Shown piece by piece: positions 719-33,015 of a stretch of 64,000 bases of DNA. Under the pieces are notes generated by a model. That model searched no databases. It saw only the letters and a program-made list of their open reading frames with translations, and was not told the origin of the DNA. Origin of the DNA: Hyphomonas sp. (lineage in GTDB: Bacteria; Pseudomonadota; Alphaproteobacteria; Caulobacterales; Hyphomonadaceae); NCBI RefSeq assembly GCF_017792385.1, contig NZ_CP051230.1, positions 710,827-774,826 on the forward strand, read 5' to 3'. Position 1 is the first letter of the stretch; the number at the start of each line of letters is the position of its first letter. A program made the translations under genes and the position numbers.

Positions 719-1558
719 TCAACTTCCCCCCACACCGGCAGTCGATTGCTTGCCGCTGCGATAGACCTGGATGCCGCCATTGTTGCTGCCGCCATTCTCG
801 AGCAGATCGATCCGGGCGTCGCGATCAAACGTATCACCGACATCCGACCAGGGACGCAGCGCCAGCATCAGCTCGCCCTTGCGCTGGGCCATGGCGATCA
901 GTTCAGCTTCCTTGCTGTCAACTTCCAGCGTGGCGGTATTGCCCACTTGTGCGGCGCCATCGCCCTCCTCGGTGAGGTACACCTGGTCAATCGCCAGAAC
1001 GCGCACATTCTGCAGGATGGTGCTGGTGGCAGTCTTGTCGACCATCGCATCACCCGTCTGCACAGTGACTTCATAGGTCAGGATCACGTCGACACGGTCA
1101 TTCGGCAGGATGAAGCCACCGGAGGCTGACTCGGTTGAAATCTCTACCGATATGGCGCGCATGCCCGGCTCGATCAGCGCCGCCATCGTGCCGGTGTCGC
1201 CCTTCTTGACCAGCTTGCGCGGATGAATCGGTTCGTTCTGGAAGATCGGCACGCGCACGACGCTGCCGGCCACAAGTTCGATCGCATCCGGGGAGTCTTC
1301 ATCTGTGTGAAACCCCGGCACGATGCTGTTCTCGGGCCAGTTGGCCCATTTAAGGTCATCCACGGAAACATAGTCGCCGATTGACAGGTCGCGCTGCGCG
1401 ACGAGCACCTTGATCTCGGTGATCTCCATATGCTCGATCACCGTCGTCGGCTGCGCCGGTGCGGACGGACCCTGCTGGGCCAGGTTCCGGACCAGGAATG
1501 CCGCCGCGATGGCGGCAATGGCAGCTCCGATCAGGATGATTAGACGAATTGGCGACAT
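719..1558 (-). CDS. cpaB: Flp pilus assembly protein CpaB
   Basis: N-terminal TM, SAF-like segment (VLVAQRDLSIG), GMRAISVEIS...GFILPNDRVDVILT...LQNVRVLAIDQ motifs; Tad locus context. Confidence 0.95.
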   Translation of the reverse strand: MSPIRLIILIGAAIAAIAAAFLVRNLAQQGPSAPAQPTTVIEHMEITEIKVLVAQRDLSIGDYVSVDDLKWANWPENSIVPGFHTDEDSPDAIELVAGSVVRVPIFQNEPIHPRKLVKKGDTGTMAALIEPGMRAISVEISTESASGGFILPNDRVDVILTYEVTVQTGDAMVDKTATSTILQNVRVLAIDQVYLTEEGDGAAQVGNTATLEVDSKEAELIAMAQRKGELMLALRPWSDVGDTFDRDARIDLLENGGSNNGGIQVYRSGKQSTAGVGGS

Positions 1559-1647
1559 GAGGCCCCACTCCTCCGGAAATACGACACCTCGGAAAATCGT
1601 GTTCGACTCAGCGATGTCCGATCAGGGATGACAATTTCATATGCTGC

Positions 1648-1663
1648 CTAAAGCATCGTTAAC
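1648..1663. promoter_or_regulatory. CtrA-binding site upstream of cpaB
   Basis: CTAA-AGCATCG-TTAAC is TTAA-N7-TTAAC with one mismatch. It overlaps the cpaA stop codon about 90 nt upstream of cpaB; Caulobacter cpa genes are CtrA-regulated. Confidence 0.6.
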
Positions 1664-2174
1664 CGAAATTGCTGATCCGGCTTAATACTTCGGCAAGAAA
1701 CGGCGACTGGGCTCCGGCGGCAAACGCGCCCGCGGCGATGGCCACGCCATAGGGAACGCCGGCCTTCTCCTCGAACGGGGCCCGGATGGCACCCGGCACC
1801 GCCTCGGCGGGCATCGTCATGCGCACAAGGATGATGATCACGGCGCAGGCGCCACCGGCTACGGCCATTGTGAACAGGAAGGTGATGCTGGCTGACGGCC
1901 CGACCCACAACATCACCGCCGGGATCATCTTTGCGTCCCCTCCCCCGAAAATGTTGAAGGCGAACAGGCCGAACGCGATCAGCAGCGCACAGGCCGCCGC
2001 GATGACATGCCCCCCGATGATTTCCAGCGGAACACCGGACACGGCGGCTGCCGGCACAAAGAGCAGTGCCAGCGTCAGGTTCAGCCAGTTCGGAATGGTC
2101 AGCCGGTTCACATCGTGCAACGCAGCGAATACGCACAGGGCCAGGAACAGGCCGGCGAGCAGGGACAAGATCAT
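1659..2174 (-). CDS. cpaA: Prepilin peptidase CpaA/TadV (A24 family)
   Basis: AALHDVNRLTIPN and FGGGDAKM catalytic Asp motifs, C-terminal VPYGVAI; lies between pilin and cpaB. Confidence 0.95.
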   Translation of the reverse strand: MILSLLAGLFLALCVFAALHDVNRLTIPNWLNLTLALLFVPAAAVSGVPLEIIGGHVIAAACALLIAFGLFAFNIFGGGDAKMIPAVMLWVGPSASITFLFTMAVAGGACAVIIILVRMTMPAEAVPGAIRAPFEEKAGVPYGVAIAAGAFAAGAQSPFLAEVLSRISNFG

Positions 2175-2250
2175 GGATACGTCCTTCAGGTCGGTTTTCG
2201 CGGGCCAACCTGCCCCAAAAGACTGAAGGAAGTTTTTAAACGCGCCGCCC

Positions 2251-2290
2251 CAAACGAAAGAGGCCGCCTGGTTTGCCCAGGCGGCCTCAT
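2251..2290 (-). terminator. Rho-independent terminator after the pilin gene
   Basis: GAGGCCGCCTGG (2260-2271) / CCAGGCGGCCTC (2277-2288) 12-bp stem, followed on the minus strand by TTTCGTTT. Confidence 0.85.
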
Positions 2291-2318
2291 TGCTAAAGTC
2301 TAGGCTTGTAGCCTGAAC

Positions 2319-2480
2319 TTAGGCGCCGTTCATCGACGTAGCGACGTTCTGGAACTTGTCGTTCACAGACTTACCAAGGGCGGTAGCACCACCGATGATA
2401 GCAACAGCGATCAGAGCAGCGATCAGGCCGTATTCAATAGCCGTGGCGCCAGACTCGTCTTTCAGAAAACGTGCAAACAT
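2319..2480 (-). CDS. pilA: Flp family type IVb pilin (53 aa, below the ORF-track cutoff)
   Basis: Manual translation MFARFLKDESGATAIEYGLIAALIAVAIIGGATALGKSVNDKFQNVATSMNGA, with the G|ATAIEY Flp motif and an upstream GGAG RBS. Confidence 0.97.
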   Translation of the reverse strand: MFARFLKDESGATAIEYGLIAALIAVAIIGGATALGKSVNDKFQNVATSMNGA

Positions 2481-2785
2481 TGGAAACTCCCATCATGCAA
2501 TTGTTTTTGCCCCGGCAAAATCCTCTACCCGGAACATGATGGAACCTACCCAATCATTCTCAACATCACATGAAAGAAAAGAGAAAATCCATGAAGGCGG
2601 GTGAGGGATTTGTTTACCATCTGTATGCCCGCAAAATCAGGCGTTCAGGTGATTCGGTCCCATGGCCCCTTCCCTATTATAAAGACCAGTCTGTGTAAAA
2701 TGCCGTGCAGGGGTAACCCGGTTAGGAAACGCGCAACCTTCTTCAGGGAAAGTGCCGATGCTGATTGATCCTTGGAGCCAGCCTG

Positions 2786-3229
2786 ATGAACCTGTTCGCG
2801 AAGTTCTGCGCCCTGCCGGCGATTGCGGCAACCCTGTCCCAGGCAGCCCTTGCCGGACCGATTTCCGTCGAGCTCAACAAGACAATTCCGCTGCACCTGC
2901 GCAGCGAGGCGGCCAGCATCGTGCTCGGCAATCCGGCAATTGCGGACGTCTCCGTTCATGATGACCAGCTCCTTTTCCTGACCGGAAAGTCCTTCGGCAC
3001 GACCAATCTGCTGGTCTTTGACAAGTCCGGCCGTCAGATCTTCTCGTCCGACATTGTCGTGACAGCGGATGAAGCAAACCTGGTCACCGTCAACCGGTCT
3101 GGATCCAGCTTTACCTATGACTGTGCGCCGACCTGCCGCCCCACCCTGAATCCGGGTGACAATCCGGGCCATTTCGACCAGCAGCTCCAGCAGCAGCAGG
3201 GTGTGCGCGAAACAACCGACACACGCTAG
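2786..3229 (+). CDS. Pilus assembly protein, secretin N-terminal-domain family (T2SS/T3SS pil_N)
   Basis: Signal peptide, then SIVLGNPAIADVSV...LTGKSFGTTNLLVFD; C-terminal C-x-P-x-C. ATG 2786 has a GGAG RBS, whereas the track start at 2765 is TTG. Confidence 0.85.
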   Translation: MNLFAKFCALPAIAATLSQAALAGPISVELNKTIPLHLRSEAASIVLGNPAIADVSVHDDQLLFLTGKSFGTTNLLVFDKSGRQIFSSDIVVTADEANLVTVNRSGSSFTYDCAPTCRPTLNPGDNPGHFDQQLQQQQGVRETTDTR

Positions 3230-3337
3230 ACGCGCAGAAACCGCGCCCCGGCGCGGTCCAGACGCCGAAATCGATAAAATTCAACATATCGCTGCAACGG
3301 CATGACAACCCAGATCCGCTAGGGTGACCCTCTACTC

Positions 3338-3919
3338 ATGAGGGTGGTTTGGGTCATGATACTGACGACACAGAACGGAATTGTTGCGCCAAGGCTGCGC
3401 CGCAAGTTTGAACAATGGTGTGAAGACCGGCGCGGCATTGCCGCGGTCGAGTTCGCACTGGTGTCCGTGCCTTTCTTCTTCCTGATCTTTGGCCTGATGG
3501 AGGTCTGCCTGGTCTTCATCATGGCTTCGGTCCTGGAACACGCGCTGGCAGAAGCGTCCCGTAAGATCCGCACGGGCCAGGCGCAGGACAGCGGCTTCAC
3601 CAAGGTCGAATTCCGCACCGAAGTCTGCTCGAAATTCTACAATCTGCTGAATTGCGATGACCATCTCTATATTGACGTGCGTTCGCTCGACAATTTCAGT
3701 TCGGCCGACATCACCACGCCGCTGGACAAGGATGGCGAGATCGACGATTCCGATTTCCGCTACGATCCGGGGTCTGCAAACGATGTGGTCGCAATCCGTG
3801 TTCTGTATGAATGGAAACTGCTGACGCCGTGGATTTCCGCGCCGCTGTCCAATCTTCCGAACAACCGCCACCTGCTGCAATCGAACGCGGTGTTCCGCAA
3901 CGAACCTTTCGGAGACTGA
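3338..3919 (+). CDS. TadE/TadG family pseudopilin
   Basis: RRGIAAVEFALVSVPFFFLIFG prepilin-like motif; start may be ATG 3356. Confidence 0.9.
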   Translation: MRVVWVMILTTQNGIVAPRLRRKFEQWCEDRRGIAAVEFALVSVPFFFLIFGLMEVCLVFIMASVLEHALAEASRKIRTGQAQDSGFTKVEFRTEVCSKFYNLLNCDDHLYIDVRSLDNFSSADITTPLDKDGEIDDSDFRYDPGSANDVVAIRVLYEWKLLTPWISAPLSNLPNNRHLLQSNAVFRNEPFGD

Positions 3920-4527
3920 TGACCATGTCTGTGAAATCGATTCTTTCCCGGTTGAACCCCCGCCTGAAATGGCGTGGCGTGCGCGGCATCCGCTACAATG
4001 AGGAAGGTGTCTCGGCGGTCGAATTCGCCCTGATCGCCCCCGTCCTGATCCTGATCTATCTCGGCGCAGTCGAGCTCAGCCTGCTGATGCGCGTCGACCG
4101 CCGCGTGACCTCGACCACGGCCAGCCTCGGTGACCTGACGGCCCGTCTGGCCACGGTCACCGATGACGACATGAAGGAAATGTTCGCCGCAGCCGAAGTG
4201 ATGATGCAGCCCTATGACGCCAAGAGCGCCACGATGCGGCTGTCCAGCATCGTCGACAAGGGCGACGGCAAGCCGGTCGTCGACTGGTCGGATGCCTACA
4301 TGATGACAGCTTATGCCAAGGGCGCTTCGATCGATCTGCCGGACGGCATCGTGTCCACGCCCGGATCCATTATCATGGCGGAAGTCGTCTACGAGCATGA
4401 CAGCAAGTTGGGCGGCTTTCTGAAGTCCTCACGGACAATCAGCGACAAATTCTATCTCCGCCCGCGCCGGGTCGACGAGATCACCCGGGTCACCAAGGGT
4501 GGCAGCCCGTTCGGACCGACCAGCTAG
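3919..4527 (+). CDS. TadE/TadG family pseudopilin (second)
   Basis: EEGVSAVEFALIAPVLILIYLG motif; TGATG overlap with the previous gene (alternative start 3925). Confidence 0.9.
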   Translation: MTMSVKSILSRLNPRLKWRGVRGIRYNEEGVSAVEFALIAPVLILIYLGAVELSLLMRVDRRVTSTTASLGDLTARLATVTDDDMKEMFAAAEVMMQPYDAKSATMRLSSIVDKGDGKPVVDWSDAYMMTAYAKGASIDLPDGIVSTPGSIIMAEVVYEHDSKLGGFLKSSRTISDKFYLRPRRVDEITRVTKGGSPFGPTS

Positions 4528-4541
4528 GTCAGGGCCCTGCC

Positions 4542-6059
4542 CTATTCTGCCGGGGTGCGCCCGACCCGCACCGTGGTCAGCACCGCAAAGCCCAGGAAGA
4601 ACAACAGCGCGATGGCCGACATGCCGACGCGCTGGCTGTTCGACCAGGTCGTGAACAGCTCGATCAGTAGCGGGCCGATCCAGACGGTCACGGTTCCGGC
4701 AATCGCATACAGGCCGAAGAACTCGCCCCGCATATGGGTCGGCGCAATGTGCACCAGCATCGACCGGCTGGACGAGATATTGGCCGTCGCGAACACACCG
4801 ATCAGGGCGCCGTTGAGCAGATAGGTGACGTCCGACAGGCTCGAGAAGACCGGGGCCTCCCACAATTGCCGGTTCTCGAACAGGCCGAACAGGATCGAGT
4901 CCCGCGTCACCGACAGGCCGAAGAACAGGATGATCACAATGGCCATCAATTCCATCAGCAGGGCATTCTTCGGACCGAGCTTTGAGTCGAACCAGCCACC
5001 GGCCACCCCGCCCACAGCGGCCCAGATCGAGGCCCAGATGGCATAGACTGTCAGCTCGACAATGCCCCAGCCGAGAAACAGGCTGACATAGACCGCCGCC
5101 AGCGCCAGCAGCGCGAACATGCCGTCGGCATAGATTGTCCGGGCGATCAGGAATTTGAACGCTTCCCGATACTGCGCGGCCTTGCGCACGGTGCGGATGA
5201 CGCCCTCCGCCCCGGTCTTCACTGATGGCAGGAAGGGCGTGCCCTTTACCCCGGTATCCTTCGAATACAGGAAGAAGGGAATGATCATCACGGCCAGCCA
5301 GACCGCACAGATCGGGCCGGAAATCCGGAAATGCTCATACTTTGTCGTGTCGATCCCGAACAGCGGCTCGGCAAACGGCCAGCTCAGCATGTCCGGAAGG
5401 GCGAACATGAACACGATGGCCACGAACAACAGGGTTGCCGCCGCATTGCCCAGCGCCAGGCCCAGCCCGGACACGCCCGGCAGGGCCGACGGACGGGCCG
5501 CATCCGGCAACATGGAATTGTGCGTCACTTCGCTGAACGTATAGGTGACATAGGCGGCAATCAGGATGGCAATCACCGTGCCCGTGGAAAAGCCGGCTTC
5601 GCCCGGCACCGCCCACCAGAGCAGGAAGCTCAGGACCGACAGCACCCCCAGGAACAGCACCAGCAATGGCTTGCGCCTCAGGCCCCGGTCAAACGCCGCG
5701 CCCAGGAAGGGGGCCGTCAGCGCGGCAATCGCGCCGGCCCATTTCGACAGGGAGGCGACCACCGCCTGGCCCTTCGCACCGGCCACCTGACGGGCCGTTT
5801 CCGGGTCCATGCCCTCCAGTTCGCCACTGGCCAGGATGTCCGCGCCGATGATGTCACGCGCGAAATAGGGCGCAAAGACATAGATGATGATCAGGATGTA
5901 ATAGGGATTGCGGGCCCATTCGAACCAGGCCCAGGCCAGCCCTGTCTTGCCCAGCACGCCGCCTTCGCCCGCCGTCGGCGTGACCTGCGACTCCACAATC
6001 GCCGCCTCCTCGTCCTGCCCGGGCGAAATATAGGTCTCGGTCATGCGGTATCCTCCCAT
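4542..6059 (-). CDS. MFS transporter (UMF1/ATG22-like)
   Basis: AWAWFEWARNPY N-terminal motif, about 12 TM segments, C-terminal RGEFFGLYA; start may be 6044. Confidence 0.85.
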   Translation of the reverse strand: MGGYRMTETYISPGQDEEAAIVESQVTPTAGEGGVLGKTGLAWAWFEWARNPYYILIIIYVFAPYFARDIIGADILASGELEGMDPETARQVAGAKGQAVVASLSKWAGAIAALTAPFLGAAFDRGLRRKPLLVLFLGVLSVLSFLLWWAVPGEAGFSTGTVIAILIAAYVTYTFSEVTHNSMLPDAARPSALPGVSGLGLALGNAAATLLFVAIVFMFALPDMLSWPFAEPLFGIDTTKYEHFRISGPICAVWLAVMIIPFFLYSKDTGVKGTPFLPSVKTGAEGVIRTVRKAAQYREAFKFLIARTIYADGMFALLALAAVYVSLFLGWGIVELTVYAIWASIWAAVGGVAGGWFDSKLGPKNALLMELMAIVIILFFGLSVTRDSILFGLFENRQLWEAPVFSSLSDVTYLLNGALIGVFATANISSSRSMLVHIAPTHMRGEFFGLYAIAGTVTVWIGPLLIELFTTWSNSQRVGMSAIALLFFLGFAVLTTVRVGRTPAE

Positions 6060-6136
6060 GTGCCGCGTGCCGGCATCTGCCGCCTAGCCTGCACATTCGC
6101 GGAGAAAGGGAAAGCGGTTTTGCCCCTGTCCCGGCG

Positions 6137-7561
6137 TCAGGCCGAAAGCTTTCCGGCCAGCTCGGCGGCATATTTCGTGATGTCCCCCGCCCCCAGGCAA
6201 ACCACCATCGCGCCGGGCTCGGCCAGTGCCTTCAGGGCGTCCGGCAACGCCTCCAGCGAACCAATCGTCGCCGCCCCGCGATGCCCGTTGCGGGAGATGC
6301 TGGCCACCAGGCTCTCATGGCTGATTCCGTCGATCGGACTCTCCCCGGCCTCATAGACCGGCGCCACCAGAACATGGTCGGCCTGGTCGAAGCAGCGCGA
6401 GAAATCCTCGAACAGATCGCGCAGCCGGGTATAGCGGTGCGGCTGGCACACCGCGATCAGCTGCCCCTGCCCCTGCATCGCCCGCGCCGCTTTGAGCACA
6501 GCGGAAATCTCCACGGGATGGTGGCCGTAATCATCAATGATGCGCACCGGGGGCTGATCCGCTACGGGCAGCCATTCCCCCACCTGCGTGAAGCGGCGCT
6601 TCACCCCGCCGAACTGGCCCATGGAGCTGCGGATCTGGTCATCCGTCGCGCCCAGCTCCAGCGCCACGGCAACTGCGGCCAGCACGTTCTGCACATTGTG
6701 CTCGCCGGCCATGGGCAGGGTCAAATTCTCGATCATGCGCGGCTGCGCCGATCCCGGCCGGCGCAGCGCCACGTCGAAATGCGCCCCCGACAAATCGGTT
6801 GTCAGGTTCACGGCGCGGACATCGGCCTGGCGGTTGAAGCCATAGGTGATGCGTCGGCGGTCGGTGACGCGCGCGGCCAGTCCCTGCACTTCCGGATGGT
6901 CCGTGCACAGCACGGCAAAGCCGTAAAAAGGCAAATTCTCCACGAACGTGTCGAATGCCTCGCGCAATTTTTCCATCGAGCCGTAATGATCCATATGTTC
7001 GGGGTCGATATTGGTCACCACGGCGCAGGTCGGGTGCAGCTTGGCGAACGTGCCGTCGCTTTCATCACTCTCCACCACCATCCAGTCGCTCTCGCCCGCC
7101 TTGTAGTTCGAGCCATAGGCGTGGATGATGCCGCCATTGATGACCGTCGGGTCGATGTTTGCCCCGTCCAGCAGCGCCGCGACCATGCTGGTCGTCGTCG
7201 TCTTGCCATGCGTGCCGGCGATACAGACCGTGTATTTCAGGCGCGTGATCTCGGCCAGCATATTGGCCCGCCGCACAACCGGAATGCCCGCCGCCCGCGC
7301 CGCGTCCACTTCCGGATTTCCAGCCTTGATGGCGGAGGAAATGATGACCGTTCCGGCGCCTTTCACATTTTCGGCCTTGTGGCCGATAAAGATTTTCGCG
7401 CCCCGCTCGCGCAGGCGCTGGATATTGTCCGACTCGCGGATGTCGGAGCCCTGTACCTCATAGCCCATCGTGATCATCACATCCGCAATGCCGGACATGC
7501 CAATGCCGCCAATGCCGATAATATGCGCCGGCCCAAGGTCGAAAGGAGTGGGAGAAGTCAT
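6137..7561 (-). CDS. murC: UDP-N-acetylmuramate--L-alanine ligase
   Basis: [43 protein letters not shown] motifs. Confidence 0.98.
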
Positions 7562-26549: not shown

Positions 26550-27299
26550 TCAGGCGGCCTCGAACACTTCGTCTCTATGGTACTCCAAATACTCTGGAAG
26601 CGGATGAAACTTCTCAGGTGCGGTGGCGATCCGTCCTTCAAACAGACCACGAATATCGTTTGGCACCACAAGTTTCGGTGAGCATCTCACCGTCAGATCG
26701 TTGTTGAGGGTGATGAGTCCTTTGTCGAAAGCTCGATCATGCAGTGAGTTGAGACATATTCCATTTCTGGGGTCCAGTCGAAGCTTCTCATTCTTACTCC
26801 AGGGAATGATGTGACTCGCAATCAGAACTTCCGGCAACTCAATCCCTGTCAATGCACAACGGGAGTTGTAGGCCGACAAAACCATGGCGCGAAATGCCGA
26901 CTGGTTCTTGCGGACCCTCACTGTTCGTAAAGTATCCTCACCTTCGCGAAACTCCAAAGGCTCAGAGTCCTCATCCCTCGTGGGCCATTCACCCTCAGAC
27001 ATGAGGATAGATTGTGCCGATTCTAGAAACCTTTCGGGGTCAGCAAAAAATTCGTCCCATATCTCCCGGTCAGCCTTCGAGGCCCCTTGCAGCCCCGTAC
27101 GGTTTAAAGTCTCATCGAGTGAAGCAAAGTTGGCGAGTTTCATCGCCACTGAACTCGGAGTACGACCGAGCCGTTCGGCGAGTTTGATCACGTCGGGGTT
27201 GCCACGATGCATTCTGCCAAATGGCGTGCGTACATACAGCTCCAAGGCGAGCACTTGGTCGCGCCGCTCCCACGGTTTGCGCTCAGCCAAAGTTACCAC
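26550..27299 (-). CDS. HNH endonuclease, putative restriction/defence type
   Basis: CALTG...ASHIIPW...RNGICLNSLHDRAFDKG...YLEYHR HNH_2-type domain plus an N-terminal helical domain (LAERLGRTPSSVAMKLANF). Lower GC than the neighbours; start uncertain (GTG 27299). Confidence 0.88.
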   Translation of the reverse strand: MVTLAERKPWERRDQVLALELYVRTPFGRMHRGNPDVIKLAERLGRTPSSVAMKLANFASLDETLNRTGLQGASKADREIWDEFFADPERFLESAQSILMSEGEWPTRDEDSEPLEFREGEDTLRTVRVRKNQSAFRAMVLSAYNSRCALTGIELPEVLIASHIIPWSKNEKLRLDPRNGICLNSLHDRAFDKGLITLNNDLTVRCSPKLVVPNDIRGLFEGRIATAPEKFHPLPEYLEYHRDEVFEAA

Positions 27300-27595
27300 C
27301 CAACGCTTGGTGCTCCCTGCTGGTCGCATTCATCCAGATCATATTTAAGCCCGATCCGCTCCACCCATTCGGTCGGTAACTCTCCAGATTGCCAATCACG
27401 CATCATCTCGGCGCGGGCAAAGCCTCCCATGACATGGTCAATTCCGAAACGCCGCACGAAAACGCGGTCGGTCTCTTTCAGCCAGTTCGCAAATTCCATG
27501 ATGGCACACTCATCCTCTGCGGAAACGGAACTCAACCTGAATGAGGTTGCACCGTCAACACCCACCACCGCACAAAACAAGAACACCCTAGACAC
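27293..27595 (-). CDS. Hypothetical protein, translationally coupled to the HNH gene
   Basis: 100-aa ORF whose stop overlaps the putative HNH start; the real start may be the internal MEFANW. No family recognised. Confidence 0.5.
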
Positions 27596-27624: not shown

Positions 27625-29823
27625 ATGGCTCCTCCCCCTCCCCCGAAAGGCGTTTCCGAAGCGCCCAGCGTGTTTTCGCTTGATGGGTTCGCGCGCGATG
27701 CTGCGGGCGCCCTGCCCTCTGACAACTGGACGCCCCACCGGCCGGACCGCGACTGGGTCAAGCTGGAAGGCGGCAAGCGGTTCAAGGTGCATTCCGAATA
27801 CGAGCCCGCCGGCGACCAGCGCACCGCCATCCCGGAACTGGTCGAGGGCATCCAGGCCGGCGAGCGCGACCAGGTCCTGCTCGGCGCCACCGGCACGGGC
27901 AAGACCTTCACCATGGCCAAGATCATCGAGGCGACCCAGCGCCCGGCCCTGATCCTGGCGCCCAACAAGACACTCGCCGCGCAACTCTATGGCGAGTTCA
28001 AATCCTTCTTCCCGGAAAACTCGGTCGAGTATTTCGTCTCCTATTACGACTATTACCAGCCCGAGGCCTACGTCCCCCGCTCGGATCTCTATATCGAGAA
28101 GGAATCCTCCATCAACGAGGCCATCGACCGGATGCGCCACTCGGCCACCCGCGCCATCCTGGAGCGCGACGACGTCATCATCGTCGCCTCGGTCTCCTGC
28201 ATCTACGGCATCGGCTCGGTCGAGACCTACACCTCGATGACCTTCAAGCTGGAAGAGGGCCAGCGCATCGACCCGCGCGCCGTGGCCGAACAGCTGGTCG
28301 CCAATCAGTATACGCGCAATGACATGAATTTCGTGCGCGGCACCTTCCGCGTGAAGGGCGATGTCGTCGACATCTACCCCGCCCACTTCGAGGACCGCGC
28401 CTGGAAGCTTTCCTTCTTCGGCGACGAGCTGGAAAGCATCACCGAATTCGACCCGCTCACCGGCCGCACCATGCAGAAGCTGCCGGCGATCAAGATCTAC
28501 GCCAACAGCCATTATGTCACGCCGCGCCCGACGCTCAACCAGGCCATCGAGAAGATCAAGGCGGAGCTGAAGCTGACCATCGACCATTTCGAGAAACACG
28601 GCAAATTGCTGGAGGCCCAGCGCATCCAGCAGCGCACACAATATGATCTCGAAATGCTCGCCGCCACGGGCTCGTGCAATGGCATCGAGAACTATTCCCG
28701 CTACCTCACCGGCCGCAAGCCCGGCGATCCGCCGCCCACCATGTTCGAATATTTGCCGGACAATGCCCTCGTCTTCACCGATGAGAGCCACCAGACCGTG
28801 CCGCAGATCGGCGCCATGTATCGCGGCGACTTCTCGCGCAAGTCGACGCTGGCCGAATATGGCTTCCGCCTGCCCTCCTGCATGGACAACCGCCCCCTCA
28901 AATTCGAGGAATGGGACGCGATGCGCCCGCAGACCGTGCACGTCTCGGCCACCCCCGGCCCGTGGGAGCTCGACCGCACCGGCGGCGTGTTCACCGAACA
29001 GGTCATCCGCCCGACCGGCCTGCTCGACCCGCCGGTCGAGGTCCGCCCCGTCTCGAAGGATGGCGCCAACCAGGTCGATGATGTCATGGCAGAGGTCAAG
29101 GCCGTCGCCGCCAAGGGCTATCGATCGCTCATCACGACCCTGACGAAAAAGATGGCGGAAGACCTGACCGACTTCCTCAATGAGCATGGCGTGAAAGTGC
29201 GCTACATGCATTCCGACATCGACACGATCGAGCGGATCGAGATCATCCGCGATTTGCGCCTCGGCGTGTTCGATGTCCTGGTCGGCATCAACCTCCTGCG
29301 CGAGGGGCTCGACATTCCGGAATGCGGCTTTGTCGGCATTCTCGATGCGGACAAGGAAGGCTTCCTCCGGTCAGAGACGAGCCTGGTGCAGACCATCGGC
29401 CGCGCCGCGCGCAATGCCGAGGCCCGCGTCGTGCTCTATGCCGACAAGGTCACCGGCTCCATGCAACGCGCCATGGACGAGACAGACCGCCGCCGCGCCA
29501 AACAGATCGCCTATAATGAGGAACACGGCATCACGCCGACCACGATCAAGCGCGCCGTCGCCGACATCCTCGGCGACCTCGGCGAAAAATCCGACACCCC
29601 CCGCGCCCGCGGCCGCGGCAAGGACAAGGCAAAGGGCAAGACGCGCGGCGTCGCCGAAACAAAAGCCTTGCCACTTGCGGGCGAAAGCGGCCACAATCTC
29701 AAAGCCGTCCTCGCGGACCTCGAAAAACAAATGCGCGAAGCCGCCGCGAACCTGGAATTCGAGGAGGCTGCAAGGCTGAGGGACGAGGTAAAGCGGCTGA
29801 GGGAAGAAGAGCTGGGGCTTTAG
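27625..29823 (+). CDS. uvrB: Excinuclease ABC subunit B
   Basis: [53 protein letters not shown] and C-terminal UVR domain. Confidence 0.99.
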
Positions 29824-30746
29824 GCAGCTTCTAATTGGAGCAAGTGCTCCCCGATTTGCTCGACTGAGGTCATACCACGAATACGAATCTCCTCTTGATC
29901 AGCTTGCTCCTCAAGCGTTTCAAGCGCATCCGCAACATTCCTCATTTGTTTGGCGGAAAATTGAGGGTCATTTTTAGGTGGGATCTGAATAAGCATCTCG
30001 TGATATCTATCCTGCCCCCGATCCCAGTCTGCGTCCCTATTTACTTTTAGTTCCCATAATCTGGATTTTATTCGTCCTGATGAAGCGGAAACACCGTTTG
30101 CTTGCAGCGTTCCAAAATTTGCAACTAGTTTTGAACCTGCAAAATCAATATTCACTTCAGCCCCACGGCGAGCGGAGCGTCGCTTTCTTTCCAACCGAAC
30201 ATCTTCGCTAAAGAATGGCACTAAGCCGACCCGTTTTTCTTTGATATAGTCCTTGATCAAAATCGGCAGTCTATCACCTCCGCCGGTTCTTGGTCTCGCC
30301 TCTTCGACGAGCGTCTCTACTATATCTAGTTCAAATTCTTCTGAATATTCATCAGCATAAAGAGATGACAGGCTGACCATCCACGAGCAGGCAATTTGTT
30401 TCAGACTTTCACCTTCCCCGTTCCGGAGTTCACCAACCTTCACACCAGAAAACGGGACGCTGGGCTCCAGCAGCGCCTCAATTGAGCGCATGGCCAAATC
30501 AGACCGTAAACTCTCTGCAGTCCACTCAATCACCGATATCACAATCTTGGATTGATCTGCATAGAGGCATTTTAGTCGATCCAAGCGGTTAGCAATCTCC
30601 AGATGGAAGCCGTCGCTGGAAACCACAGCCACACCGAACACTAGGCGCTCATACGAGCCCTCAATGGGCTGAATCAAAAGGGGAGCCCACTTCGCATCCA
30701 CCTTAGATCGAAAACTTGGAAACATATCTGAGATCAGAGATGACAT
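29820..30746 (-). CDS. Hypothetical partner of the HipA-like kinase (DUF3037-like N-terminus)
   Basis: [22 protein letters not shown] resembles the DUF3037 N-terminal pattern; low GC; 2 nt downstream of the kinase. Confidence 0.6.
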
Positions 30747-30748
30747 GG

Positions 30749-31564
30749 CTATACCAGATAATTCAATGCTTTAGCCGATTTCGCAGGTGTCTCGGACTTT
30801 CGCTTTTCAAGGAAGTTGTTCAACGCCTTTCGGTCGCCTTCTGTCAAGTATGGCTCAACGCCACTATCTGCGAGCATCGCGGCAATATCTAGAGCGTTAA
30901 TGTCTCGGCAAAGTGCAGAAGAAACTCCGGCATGGTTCGCCTTCTCGTCTTCACTCATGTGAACAGTCAACCATTCAGACAGCCTGTTGATATAGTCTGC
31001 AGAAGGATCAAGATTTTCTGCCGACCACTTCGGACCCGTAAAAGAGTGACCATGATCGATTAGCCAGATAGCATCCTTTCCACCAAAAATCAGGTTTCCT
31101 GCATGCCGGTCGATATTTGCGACCCACGTGTCAAAAGCATATAACTTACCCAAATCTGCCCAAGCGATTAGTTCTTTTAGCAGACCAAGAATTTGGCCGT
31201 GGTCTACGGCCTGCAGTCTAAATCTCAGGCTTGGCGTGCTAACATCCGCACTGGCAAGAACAAGAGGAAGACCATCAACGGTTTTGGGACCTTTTTTTGC
31301 AGGCAGGCTATTATCTCTCACGACTGCCAGATAAGTGATGGGGATGGGCAGCCCTAGAGCAGTGGCGCATGCTGAAGCTAGCAATTCATTACAAAGCTCC
31401 TTCGGCTCAAGGTCCTTCAAGATTGCAGAACAAGTTGTCAAACCCGCCGTAAGTATCTGTCCGCGGTAAGTATCGTTCACATTGCCTTCTTTGAAGGGCT
31501 GAGCGCCAGCCAGAACCGAAGCCAACCGTATGGATTGGTGTTTTGGTATTTCTGTGGTCAACAC
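30749..31564 (-). CDS. HipA-family Ser/Thr kinase
   Basis: Lys (AILK), alphaC Glu (CNELL), catalytic DRHAGN and Mg-binding IDHG motifs intact; low GC; GTG start. Confidence 0.85.
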   Translation of the reverse strand: MLTTEIPKHQSIRLASVLAGAQPFKEGNVNDTYRGQILTAGLTTCSAILKDLEPKELCNELLASACATALGLPIPITYLAVVRDNSLPAKKGPKTVDGLPLVLASADVSTPSLRFRLQAVDHGQILGLLKELIAWADLGKLYAFDTWVANIDRHAGNLIFGGKDAIWLIDHGHSFTGPKWSAENLDPSADYINRLSEWLTVHMSEDEKANHAGVSSALCRDINALDIAAMLADSGVEPYLTEGDRKALNNFLEKRKSETPAKSAKALNYLV

Positions 31565-31712
31565 TCCCCCCCTATTTGAACCTACATCTATCTTTCATGG
31601 CTCGATCTGTCTATCATAGATTGCTATGCGGACGGGGTTCATACACCCTTAATTTCTGAAAGATATCTGCCCACATATGGGACCGCCCAGCACCGCACCA
31701 CTTCGCCGTGCC

Positions 31713-31995
31713 GTAGCAGGCGGGTTAGCGAAGCGTAACCCGCCTGCCGCCCCTTCGTCCTTCGACCCCGGCTTTCACCGGGGCAAGCCCCGCTCAGGAT
31801 GAGTCCGCTTCTTGCGGCTGGCTCCGCGCTCCAACGGCGGGAGACCCCGGCATGCGCCGGGGATGCGGACTTTGCGGGGATAGAGGTTTGCACTCTCCCC
31901 CCGCAGGCCCCTGCGGCGGCAGGGGCCCATCTCCAGCTCCCTCCTCAAGCGCTTCAGGCGATGGCGGGAGATGGATACCTGCCTTCGCAGGTATC
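31713..31995. repeat. Cluster of REP-like palindromic elements (left block)
   Basis: GTAG-GCAGGCGGGTTA/TAACCCGCCTGC hairpin (31713-31747); GTCCTTCGA...CTCAGGATGAG type; CCCCGGCATGCGCCGGGG; GATACCTGC-CTTC-GCAGGTATC. Confidence 0.8.
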
Positions 31996-32009
31996 TCCGG
32001 GCTTGAATT

Positions 32010-32600
32010 ATCGCCCTCACCATCCCCCCACCACACTCGCCGCACCGGCCCGAGATGGGCCCCCAGATGGCCTGTGGCCATCGGGGGTGACGACCTTTTG
32101 GGAGGAGAGATCGGCCTTTCCCAATCCGACGCACAGCCCCTCATGCGATGATGGTGACCTGCCCTTCCGGGAGCCGGATCAGGTACCGTTCTGGTCGGAG
32201 AGGCAGGGACAGGATGGGCCTTGCGGGAGACAGACGGTCCCGCATGGCCCTAGGCAGGTCAGGCCAGGGTGAGCCTGCGAAAGCAGGTAGGGAACCCGCC
32301 TCGTCCGGCAGCCCGGGAGACATCCCCGGATGGACTTCCCGTGTGAAAAGCACGGAAGACCCGTTCGTGCGGCGCCGGTAACGAAGACCCGGGACCATGG
32401 GCCCCCATGAGGGTGTCCCGCCGAAGCCCCTGTCCGGCGCGGCGGGCGGTAACGCTCCATTCCGTAGCCTTGTTCAGTTCCAGGCGGAGCGCCACGGCGC
32501 CCGCCGCGCCATGGCTCTGTTGGGGCCGGTTGTTGGATCCCCGGATGGCGCGCGCCAGTCCGGCCAAACGCGTTGGAGGAAACCTCGCAGACCCCCACCT
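32010..32600. other. ~590-nt highly structured non-coding element (ncRNA or foldback element)
   Basis: Many perfect stems, e.g. TGACCTGCC/GGCAGGTCA, CCTGC-GAAA-GCAGG, and a 13-bp GGCGCGGCGGGCG/CGCCCGCCGCGCC; no credible CDS. Confidence 0.6.
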
Positions 32601-33015
32601 GTCCTCCCCCTTGCAGGGGGAGGAACGCAGACAGCAGCCGCCTTGCTTGAGGGGCCGTTCTCCCCCTTGCAAAGGGGGAGTTAGAGGGGGATCGCGATGG
32701 CATGGCCATCGCCCTTCGCCAGCTCAGGCGGAGGGGGGTGAGGCAGGACAGGCCCGGCGCAGCGATACCCGCCAACCCCGTCCCGCCTTCAACCCTGTCA
32801 TCCCGGAAAATCCGTCAGGATTTATCCGGGACCCAGACACTGGGTGCGGGATGACAGGAACGGGACGATACAATCCGTCCTTCTGCTCCCCCGCCTGCGG
32901 AGGAGGTGGCAGGCGGCGCAGCCGGCTGACGGAGGGGGGATTCCGGACCCGCGGCACCAGCCCCCTCCGCCTCGCGGGGCTCGGCACCTCCCCCGCATGC
33001 GGGGGAGGATTTCCC
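32590..33015. repeat. Cluster of REP-like palindromic elements (right block)
   Basis: CCTCCCCCTTGCAGGGGGAGG, CTCCCCCTTGCAAAGGGGGAG, TGTCATCCCGG...GGGATGACA, CTCCCCCGCCTGCGGAGGAG, CCTCCCCCGCATGCGGGGGAGG. Confidence 0.8.

Follow-up and report, generated by a model that had tools for sequence, protein, structure and literature searches.

Two adjacent genes in a 64,000-nt stretch of DNA from Hyphomonas sp. (contig NZ_CP051230.1, positions 710,827 to 774,826; the whole stretch is referred to as the window, and coordinates are given within it) encode a HipA_2-type Ser/Thr kinase and a partner protein that is not HipB. The genes adjoin uvrB. With moderate confidence, and by analogy with characterised relatives, the pair is taken to be a self-contained, horizontally acquired operon that represents an alphaproteobacterial branch of the HipA_2-kinase/DUF3037 anti-phage family. 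An earlier note on this DNA had proposed a candidate defence or toxin-antitoxin (TA) module composed of a HipA kinase and a non-HipB partner. That core reading is supported by the comparisons described here, with the function being assigned by analogy.

The kinase open reading frame (ORF) lies at 30749-31564 on the minus strand and encodes 271 aa, and the co-oriented partner ORF lies at 29820-30746 on the minus strand and encodes 308 aa. At their junction, the TAG stop of the kinase is followed by two nucleotides (cc) and then by the ATG of the partner. The uvrB gene (27625-29823, plus strand) is convergent with the two genes, and the stop codons overlap, TAA of the partner being at 29820-29822 (minus strand) and TAG of uvrB at 29821-29823. 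The guanine-cytosine (GC) content is 0.48-0.50 across 29750-31500, compared with 0.60-0.70 in the flanks, and climbs above 0.6 from about 31600. On these coordinates the ORFs, the 2-nt gap, the low GC content, the convergence and the stop codon overlap with uvrB are all as the earlier note had described them.

The kinase (30749..31564, minus strand), the presumed toxin and effector of the pair, was classified by Pfam, motifs and predicted fold. It matches the Pfam domain HipA_2 (PF20613) above the gathering threshold (33.2 bits, cut-off 27, residues 52-176), and this domain is carried by 117 of 120 kinase homologues among the matches listed. PI3_PI4_kinase and ABC1 are matched below threshold. 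The PADLOC model PDC-M66A gives a partial match covering only residues 53-176 (E 3.1e-5, 21.3 bits). The Pfam models HipA_N and HipA_C find no match in the kinase, and the N-terminal subdomain of classical HipA is absent. The catalytic motifs are retained, as had been claimed from the sequence: the ATP-binding K50 (31415-31417, minus strand), the catalytic loop D152-R-H-A-G-N157 (31094-31111, minus strand) and the Mg-binding, DFG-like D170-H-G172 (31049-31057, minus strand) are invariant in 42 homologues, except for the x position of the loop (D152-R-H-x-G-N157). These motifs align with DRHNGN...IDFG of PI4-kinase beta (PI4KB). The AlphaFold (AF2) model has a mean predicted local distance difference test score (pLDDT) of 91.9 and a predicted template modelling score (pTM) of 0.90, and its best Foldseek matches in the PDB are the HipA-like kinase CtkA, VPS34/PI3K, mTOR and ordinary protein kinases. 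Thus, by motifs and predicted fold, the kinase is an intact small enzyme of the HipA/PI3-4-kinase lineage. It is the sole HipA_2 gene of the genome.

The partner (29820..30746, minus strand) has no match among Pfam, PADLOC and NCBIfam models, and a sequence-profile search of the PDB returned nothing useful for its family or for DUF3037. In a word-seeded search, 241 relatives were found, mostly annotated as 'hypothetical protein', and an exhaustive profile search defines a family that comprises 610 representative clusters (50% identity), many of whose members are full-length. The family is mostly alphaproteobacterial, with further members in Gammaproteobacteria, one phage and one phage-like plasmid. 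The earlier note had likened the N-terminus of the partner to DUF3037. This likeness is upheld as remote homology by profile-profile comparison and bridging sequence, the Pfam model itself being silent.

Canonical DUF3037 (PF11236) genes from 17 Pseudomonadota genomes were used as the comparison set. In 15 of these 17 loci the kinase profile finds a match directly upstream (14 at E <0.001), with the same overlapping arrangement as in the partner family. Short natural DUF3037 partners (131-194 aa) hold the N-terminal DUF3037 domain and little else. The long forms (263-292 aa), which served as a positive control, match PADLOC PDC-M66B end to end in 11/11 cases. DUF1829 finds no match in the partner, in its family or in the long DUF3037 proteins of Pseudomonadota. 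When a diverse partner alignment is compared with the long DUF3037 forms by hhalign, the two align over 246 co-linear columns (probability 80.6%, E 1.3e-5), and in this co-linear alignment the C-terminal domain of the partner is paired with the C-terminal half of proteins of the PDC-M66B type. Across four combinations of small and large alignments the hhalign scores are 35-45, all in one N-terminal register, compared with 12-19 for controls (column-reversed profiles and an unrelated kinase profile). Reciprocal hidden Markov model (HMM) searches between partner and DUF3037 give weak matches in the same register. A motif common to the N-termini of both families, P-x(3-5)-G-E-x-x-x-x-G, lies on a strand-loop-strand element.

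The two families are bridged by a 286-aa protein (L084:585-1445) that is situated behind a HipA_2 kinase. It is matched over its full length by the partner family (98.3%, E 1.6e-14) and in its N-terminal domain by the long DUF3037 forms (89.6%, E 1.9e-6), and its sequence contains TGERMNLGV, a hallmark of DUF3037, as well as W-x-P and CLY, which are hallmarks of the partner family. A second protein, L085, is likewise matched by both profiles. In the kinase tree, the kinases that accompany the partner type form one group (support 89/93, or 97/94 when the phage and plasmid pair is added), and this group is placed among the DUF3037-paired kinases. Profile comparison, bridging sequence and kinase tree together support the partner as a diverged, remote full-length relative of the long DUF3037 proteins. 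From these sequence relationships it is concluded that kinase and partner have co-diverged as a separate branch of the HipA_2-kinase/DUF3037 two-gene system.

The association of the two genes is constant. A scan of one genome per species found 44 partner loci, all in Alphaproteobacteria and spanning Rhodobacterales, Hyphomicrobiales, Sphingomonadales and Rhodospirillales-like groups. A kinase-profile match is seen directly upstream of the partner on the same strand in 41/41 loci that have upstream sequence, the three loci without a detected kinase (3/44) lying at contig ends. In nearly all of them the kinase match overlaps the partner start, mostly by 4 nt, or stops a few bases from it; in a few loci the kinase match is truncated or spaced, and a few of the genes are decayed. 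A HipA_2 gene also overlaps the partner from upstream in three distant members of metagenomic origin, at 24-29% identity. The kinase of L038 is apparently truncated (profile match of only 160 aa), and L044 holds remnants only. Kinase and partner are translationally coupled, and are always found together in the complete loci checked. No third conserved gene was found by all-against-all clustering of neighbouring ORFs. The absence of an upstream HipB, as previously proposed, also holds: there is no credible ORF and no helix-turn-helix (HTH)-type ORF in the 1.4 kb upstream of the kinase, and no small conserved HipB-like upstream ORF across 39 related loci.

The earlier note regarded kinase-first pairs of this kind as poorly characterised. 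However, they are already listed as PDC-M66, and have been validated as DS-6/HipAD (PMC13092281) and in Retron-Sda1 (PMC12548924). DS-6 of E. coli was validated as anti-phage by the DefensePredictor study (Science 2026, PMC13092281), where mutating the predicted catalytic residue of the kinase ended defence and AlphaFold3 predicted a kinase-partner complex and, more weakly, DNA binding. It was renamed HipAD after Brenes & Laub 2025 had discovered it independently in prophages of E. coli (via PMC13092281). In Retron-Sda1, defence against phage Bas51 was lost when the HipA-like kinase was deleted, deletion of the DUF3037 gene was toxic, and the retron parts were dispensable (PLoS Biol 2025, PMC12548924). 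The genetics of Retron-Sda1 and DS-6 therefore indicate that in these relatives the role of toxin and effector falls to the kinase, which the DUF3037 protein neutralises. The 'kinase-neutralised toxin' logic offered in the earlier note is accordingly without support in the relatives, where it is the partner that neutralises the kinase.

HipAD, a name reportedly given by Brenes & Laub in Cell Host Microbe in 2025, resembles the pair in the window in having a small HipA-related kinase first, a DUF3037-type partner second and no HipB. It is carried on mobile or prophage DNA, and the pair described here lies in a low-GC accessory island. The two differ in that DS-6B is reported with DUF3037 and DUF1829, whereas neither model finds a match in the partner here, which ends in a C-terminal alpha/beta domain of its own. 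The similarity between them is seen only by profile methods, and the hosts differ, being E. coli in one case and a Hyphomonadaceae alphaproteobacterium, with a chromosomal site adjoining uvrB, in the other. PADLOC lists the HipA-like kinase and DUF3037 as the candidate system PDC-M66 (models PDLC04766 for M66A and PDLC04767 for M66B), which has the same gene order, overlap and protein sizes as the pair here. A PADLOC search, which the earlier note had proposed, recovers the kinase as a partial PDC-M66A match, but not the partner. Retron-Sda1 is also similar in containing a pair of a kinase and a DUF3037-type gene, the polarity of which is assumed for the pair here. However, its cassette is inside a retron operon and its DUF3037 C-terminus resembles a retron DNA-binding protein, whereas no retron, reverse transcriptase or non-coding RNA is near the pair in the window. 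HipBA and HipBST share with the kinase the HipA/PI3-4-kinase-like core, the DxHxxN-type loop and the Mg-binding Asp, and share the toxin-kinase logic with its inferred role. They differ from the pair here, in which the kinase gene comes first and there is no upstream HTH antitoxin (HipB). Additionally, canonical HipA is ~440 aa with an N-terminal subdomain, whereas the kinase here is 271 aa and consists of HipA_2 only. The biology of the pair is, by this analogy, probably that of the known HipAD/DS-6/PDC-M66 family.

If the polarity of the relatives applies, the kinase would be a growth-arresting toxin, and the partner would bind and silence it, mainly through the N-terminal DUF3037-like domain. 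This domain is proposed as the main silencer because the natural short forms consist of that part alone. Phage infection would free or activate the kinase, which would then abort the infection by phosphorylating an essential target of the host or of the phage. The C-terminal domain would probably be a sensor or a DNA-binding or regulatory module, and may be exchangeable. By analogy with the short forms, neutralisation of the kinase plausibly requires no more than the N-terminal domain, and the C-terminal one could plausibly be exchanged.

Several observations weigh against this assignment. Pfam DUF3037 (PF11236) finds no match in the 308-aa partner or in 41 family members, and PADLOC PDC-M66B finds none at E up to 1 in the partner and 40 diverse family members; PADLOC would miss this locus because of the latter. 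In these sequence comparisons the N-terminal domain is the more securely homologous part, and homology of the C-terminal half rests on modest scores because larger alignments reach only 38-49% hhalign probability. The identity to the validated systems is very low, and the transfer of function from them is an inference by analogy. Finally, two loci have broken partners beside intact kinases. In L019 (Oceanicella) the partner (disruption region L019:5989-6915) is broken at residue 116, where the codon TTA has become the stop TAA; the sister sequence L039 is intact. In L043 (a Roseovarius metagenome-assembled genome (MAG), L043:4182-6465) a 339-aa transposase-like gene, judged from its sequence to be IS110-like, is inserted after about residue 128, just upstream of the partner linker. 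The kinase ORF is intact in both. Such loci would not be expected if the full-length partner were needed as an antitoxin. In them a fragment from the partner N-terminus may suffice, or their kinases may be silent.

The best surviving rival, which is nevertheless unlikely, is a plain chromosomal TA or addiction module, in which the kinase is the toxin, the partner is the antitoxin, and the pair serves island stability or dormancy with no phage defence. The architecture is the same as that of HipA-type TA systems, and the pair is alone beside a housekeeping gene, with no large defence island. An orthologous pair is found at the same site in one MAG, Hyphomonadaceae bacterium BRH_c29 (L001), with 92-93% protein identity, and has co-diverged with uvrB since the L001 split: the synonymous divergence (dS) of the pair, 0.37-0.42, is close to the 0.49 of uvrB. 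The ratio of nonsynonymous to synonymous divergence (dN/dS) relative to L001 is low in both the kinase (0.10) and the partner (0.08), and by these ratios both genes are under purifying selection. From the low dN/dS, and a dS of the pair near that of uvrB, the island has therefore been kept by selection and is older than the split from L001. Against a plain TA module, the nearest characterised relatives defend against phage (PMC13092281, PMC12548924), distant members occupy a repressor-adjacent slot in a temperate phage and a phage-like plasmid, and some copies adjoin other defence-type genes.

The genomic surroundings of other copies bear on the same question. Phage-type integrases are near the kinase/partner copies in 6 loci, and the kinase tree is incongruent with taxonomy. 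In five Rhodobacterales genera (L010, L017, L019, L039 and L042) the pair is part of a near-identical block at about 750-6900 in each locus, in the order DUF6527, an E1(ThiF)-JAB fusion, a 407-aa protein of no assigned family, HTH_3 and an M78 peptidase, followed by the kinase/partner pair. The kinase branch lengths among these five copies are about 0-0.015, and the block suggests that a composite defence-like island has spread horizontally very recently. Distant homologous pairs are found directly after a repressor-like HTH gene in Alteromonas phage P24 (L078, MK241539.2) and on a plasmid of Marinobacter sp. M3C (L079, NZ_CP092286.1), and another distant copy is in a prophage-like region of metagenomic origin. 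These mobile and phage contexts fit a mobile defence or exclusion cassette. As a separate observation on the two elements, the plasmid and the phage are nearly equal in size (46,935 and 46,945 bp, respectively, with 74 features each), and both have the order HTH repressor, HipA kinase, partner homologue. The plasmid, probably a phage-plasmid or a prophage that has not integrated, additionally encodes RusA, a KilAC antirepressor and HicAB.

In the genus itself, the position right after uvrB appears to be a hotspot for accessory genes. The pair is absent from 24/24 congeners and from 16/16 genomes of other families in the same order, and it is present in 2/300 other Pseudomonadota genomes, compared with 17/300 for canonical DUF3037. 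The similarity to five congeners (L073-L077) halts at the uvrB stop codon, and each of these bears a different low-GC cargo (0.43-0.49) directly downstream of uvrB: a KAP/AAA-type NTPase that weakly matches PDC-M28C, a HerA-like ATPase, an IS1595 transposase accompanied by genes of no assigned family, a pentapeptide-repeat protein beside one such gene, and a 509-aa protein that is likewise unassigned. In the window, the corresponding low-GC accessory island spans ~1.8 kb (29820..31670, unstranded). It is delimited by composition, is flush with the uvrB stop codon, and begins where congener similarity ends (29819-29823). No tRNA gene was found as an integration signature of the island, no Rfam family was found at it, and no convincing flanking direct or inverted repeats were found around it. 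There is also no obvious attachment (att) site in the slot after uvrB in L073-L077.

The structure predicted for the partner allows more specific alternatives for its role to be weighed. The AlphaFold model (pLDDT 88) has two domains. The N-terminal, DUF3037-like domain (residues 16-126; 30369..30701, minus strand) is modelled by AF2 as strand-strand-strand-helix-strand-strand-helix and carries the hallmarks W20-x-P22, P27, G30-S31-x-E33-R34 and C60-L-Y, with S127-S128-L just beyond the domain. It is followed by a disordered interdomain linker (residues 137-155; 30282..30338, minus strand), with pLDDT <50 and a variable, gapped alignment, and by a C-terminal alpha/beta domain (residues 160-307; 29826..30269, minus strand), defined by the AF2 model and conservation. 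In the latter, D201, N210 (VANF), K227, D/E232 (LWDL), R237, E250 and E306 are conserved, and G105 and F179 are also conserved across 244 partner-family sequences. The earlier note had suggested a restriction-endonuclease-like fold for the C-terminus, and had proposed structural searches with both ORFs. With Foldseek, the kinase is recognised clearly through CtkA, PI3K and protein-kinase folds, and the partner obtains only weak partial matches, of ~110 columns, to the ERCC4-type nuclease domains of XPF, Hef, Mus81 and FANCM in the PDB (E 0.016-0.45) and to viral ERCC4 proteins in BFVD (E 0.015-0.09). These matches cover one partner domain of ~110 residues, either N- or C-terminal. The suggested fold is therefore only weakly indicated, and a nuclease role is not supported: no catalytic signature (GDxnERKx3D or PD-(D/E)xK) is found among residues at least 70% conserved in 244 partner sequences, and in place of the ERCC4 signature only the E33-R34 pair at a strand start is conserved. 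The ERCC4/XPF/Hef/Mus81 domain is thus the best but a weak structural match of one partner domain, with its catalytic signature absent. The best structural match of the partner in BFVD is a full-length viral protein of 287 aa (E 1.1e-16).

One role that was considered for the partner and rejected is that of HipS. In HipBST, HipS provides the N-terminal subdomain that HipA is missing, and no HipA, HipS or HipT structure is found among the best 50 PDB fold matches of the partner.

A more doubtful extension of the defence model is that the private two-domain partner is a nucleic-acid sensor with an ERCC4/restriction-endonuclease fold, which would detect phage DNA or a replication structure and free the kinase, or else that it is switched by the kinase through phosphorylation at the near-invariant S127-S128 motif of the domain boundary, the N-terminal domain alone holding the kinase in either case. 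If the N-terminal domain suffices to hold the kinase, this would explain the loci with a truncated partner and an intact kinase. The same structural matches could be read with the roles reversed, so that the partner, with an ERCC4/restriction-endonuclease fold, would be a nuclease-like toxin and effector, and the kinase a sensor or regulator controlling it by phosphorylation, perhaps of S127-S128. The weak XPF/Hef/Mus81/ERCC4 matches in two Foldseek libraries, the conserved Ser-Ser motif at the partner domain boundary, and the fact that the partner and not the kinase is the gene disrupted in two loci (L019, L043) are in its favour. However, the fold matches are not significant (E >=0.015), neither the GDxnERKx3D nor the PD-(D/E)xK signature is conserved in the partner family, and the short DUF3037 partners of 131-194 aa hold the N-terminal domain and little else. 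The polarity in Retron-Sda1 is also the opposite, as loss of DUF3037 is toxic and loss of the kinase ends defence (PMC12548924). Reversed roles are considered improbable. It is very improbable that the partner is unrelated to DUF3037 and is a non-homologous replacement behind a HipA_2 kinase, with another function such as that of the substrate of a regulatory kinase: the lack of a direct HMM match to DUF3037 or PDC-M66B and the hhalign probability of <50% with larger alignments would allow it, but the register is consistent and the full-length alignment co-linear in every true pair with controls far lower, L084 and L085 are matched by both profiles, and length, gene order and overlap are equal in both families.

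The remaining features of the locus concern its flanks. An AT-rich leader (31565..31670, minus strand) forms the right edge of the low-GC island and is the presumed promoter region of the two-gene operon, as judged from GC content and L001 similarity. The promoter and terminator scan found no sigma-70 consensus on the minus strand of the operon and nothing above chance on that strand, and for this reason the promoter at 31565-31670 is inferred only. The similarity to the orthologous locus L001 extends to 31670, and cannot be traced past that point because the L001 contig stops within ~290 bases. Further upstream of the kinase, the 1.3 kb at 31700-33000 is a GC-rich, ORF-free mosaic of the genome's own dispersed repeats. 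One repeat unit of ~615 bp (about 32123-32738) has 5 further copies in the genome at 92-94% identity, shorter units (185, 120 and 40 bp) have many copies, and there is no Rfam match within the mosaic. On the other side, just upstream of uvrB, there is an HNH endonuclease gene (26550-27329, minus strand) with GC of about 0.52, which matches Pfam HNH_2 and the PADLOC 'HNH' model PDLC04132 (E 1.1e-85). Congener similarity begins only at about 27561, and uvrB is therefore flanked on both sides by accessory, defence-type insertions.

The advance made here is a modest one. The system class has already been described and validated, and what is new is a large, unannotated and mainly alphaproteobacterial branch that is beyond the current family models and is found, in this genome, at a uvrB-adjacent hotspot. 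The branch exposes a gap in detection, as a partner family of 610 clusters is missed by Pfam, NCBIfam and PADLOC, and it provides sequences for better detection models. The family also shows which part of the partner is universal, namely the N-terminal DUF3037-like domain, and which is exchangeable, namely the C-terminal domain. Its link to HipAD/DS-6/PDC-M66 broadens the known range of kinase-based anti-phage modules.

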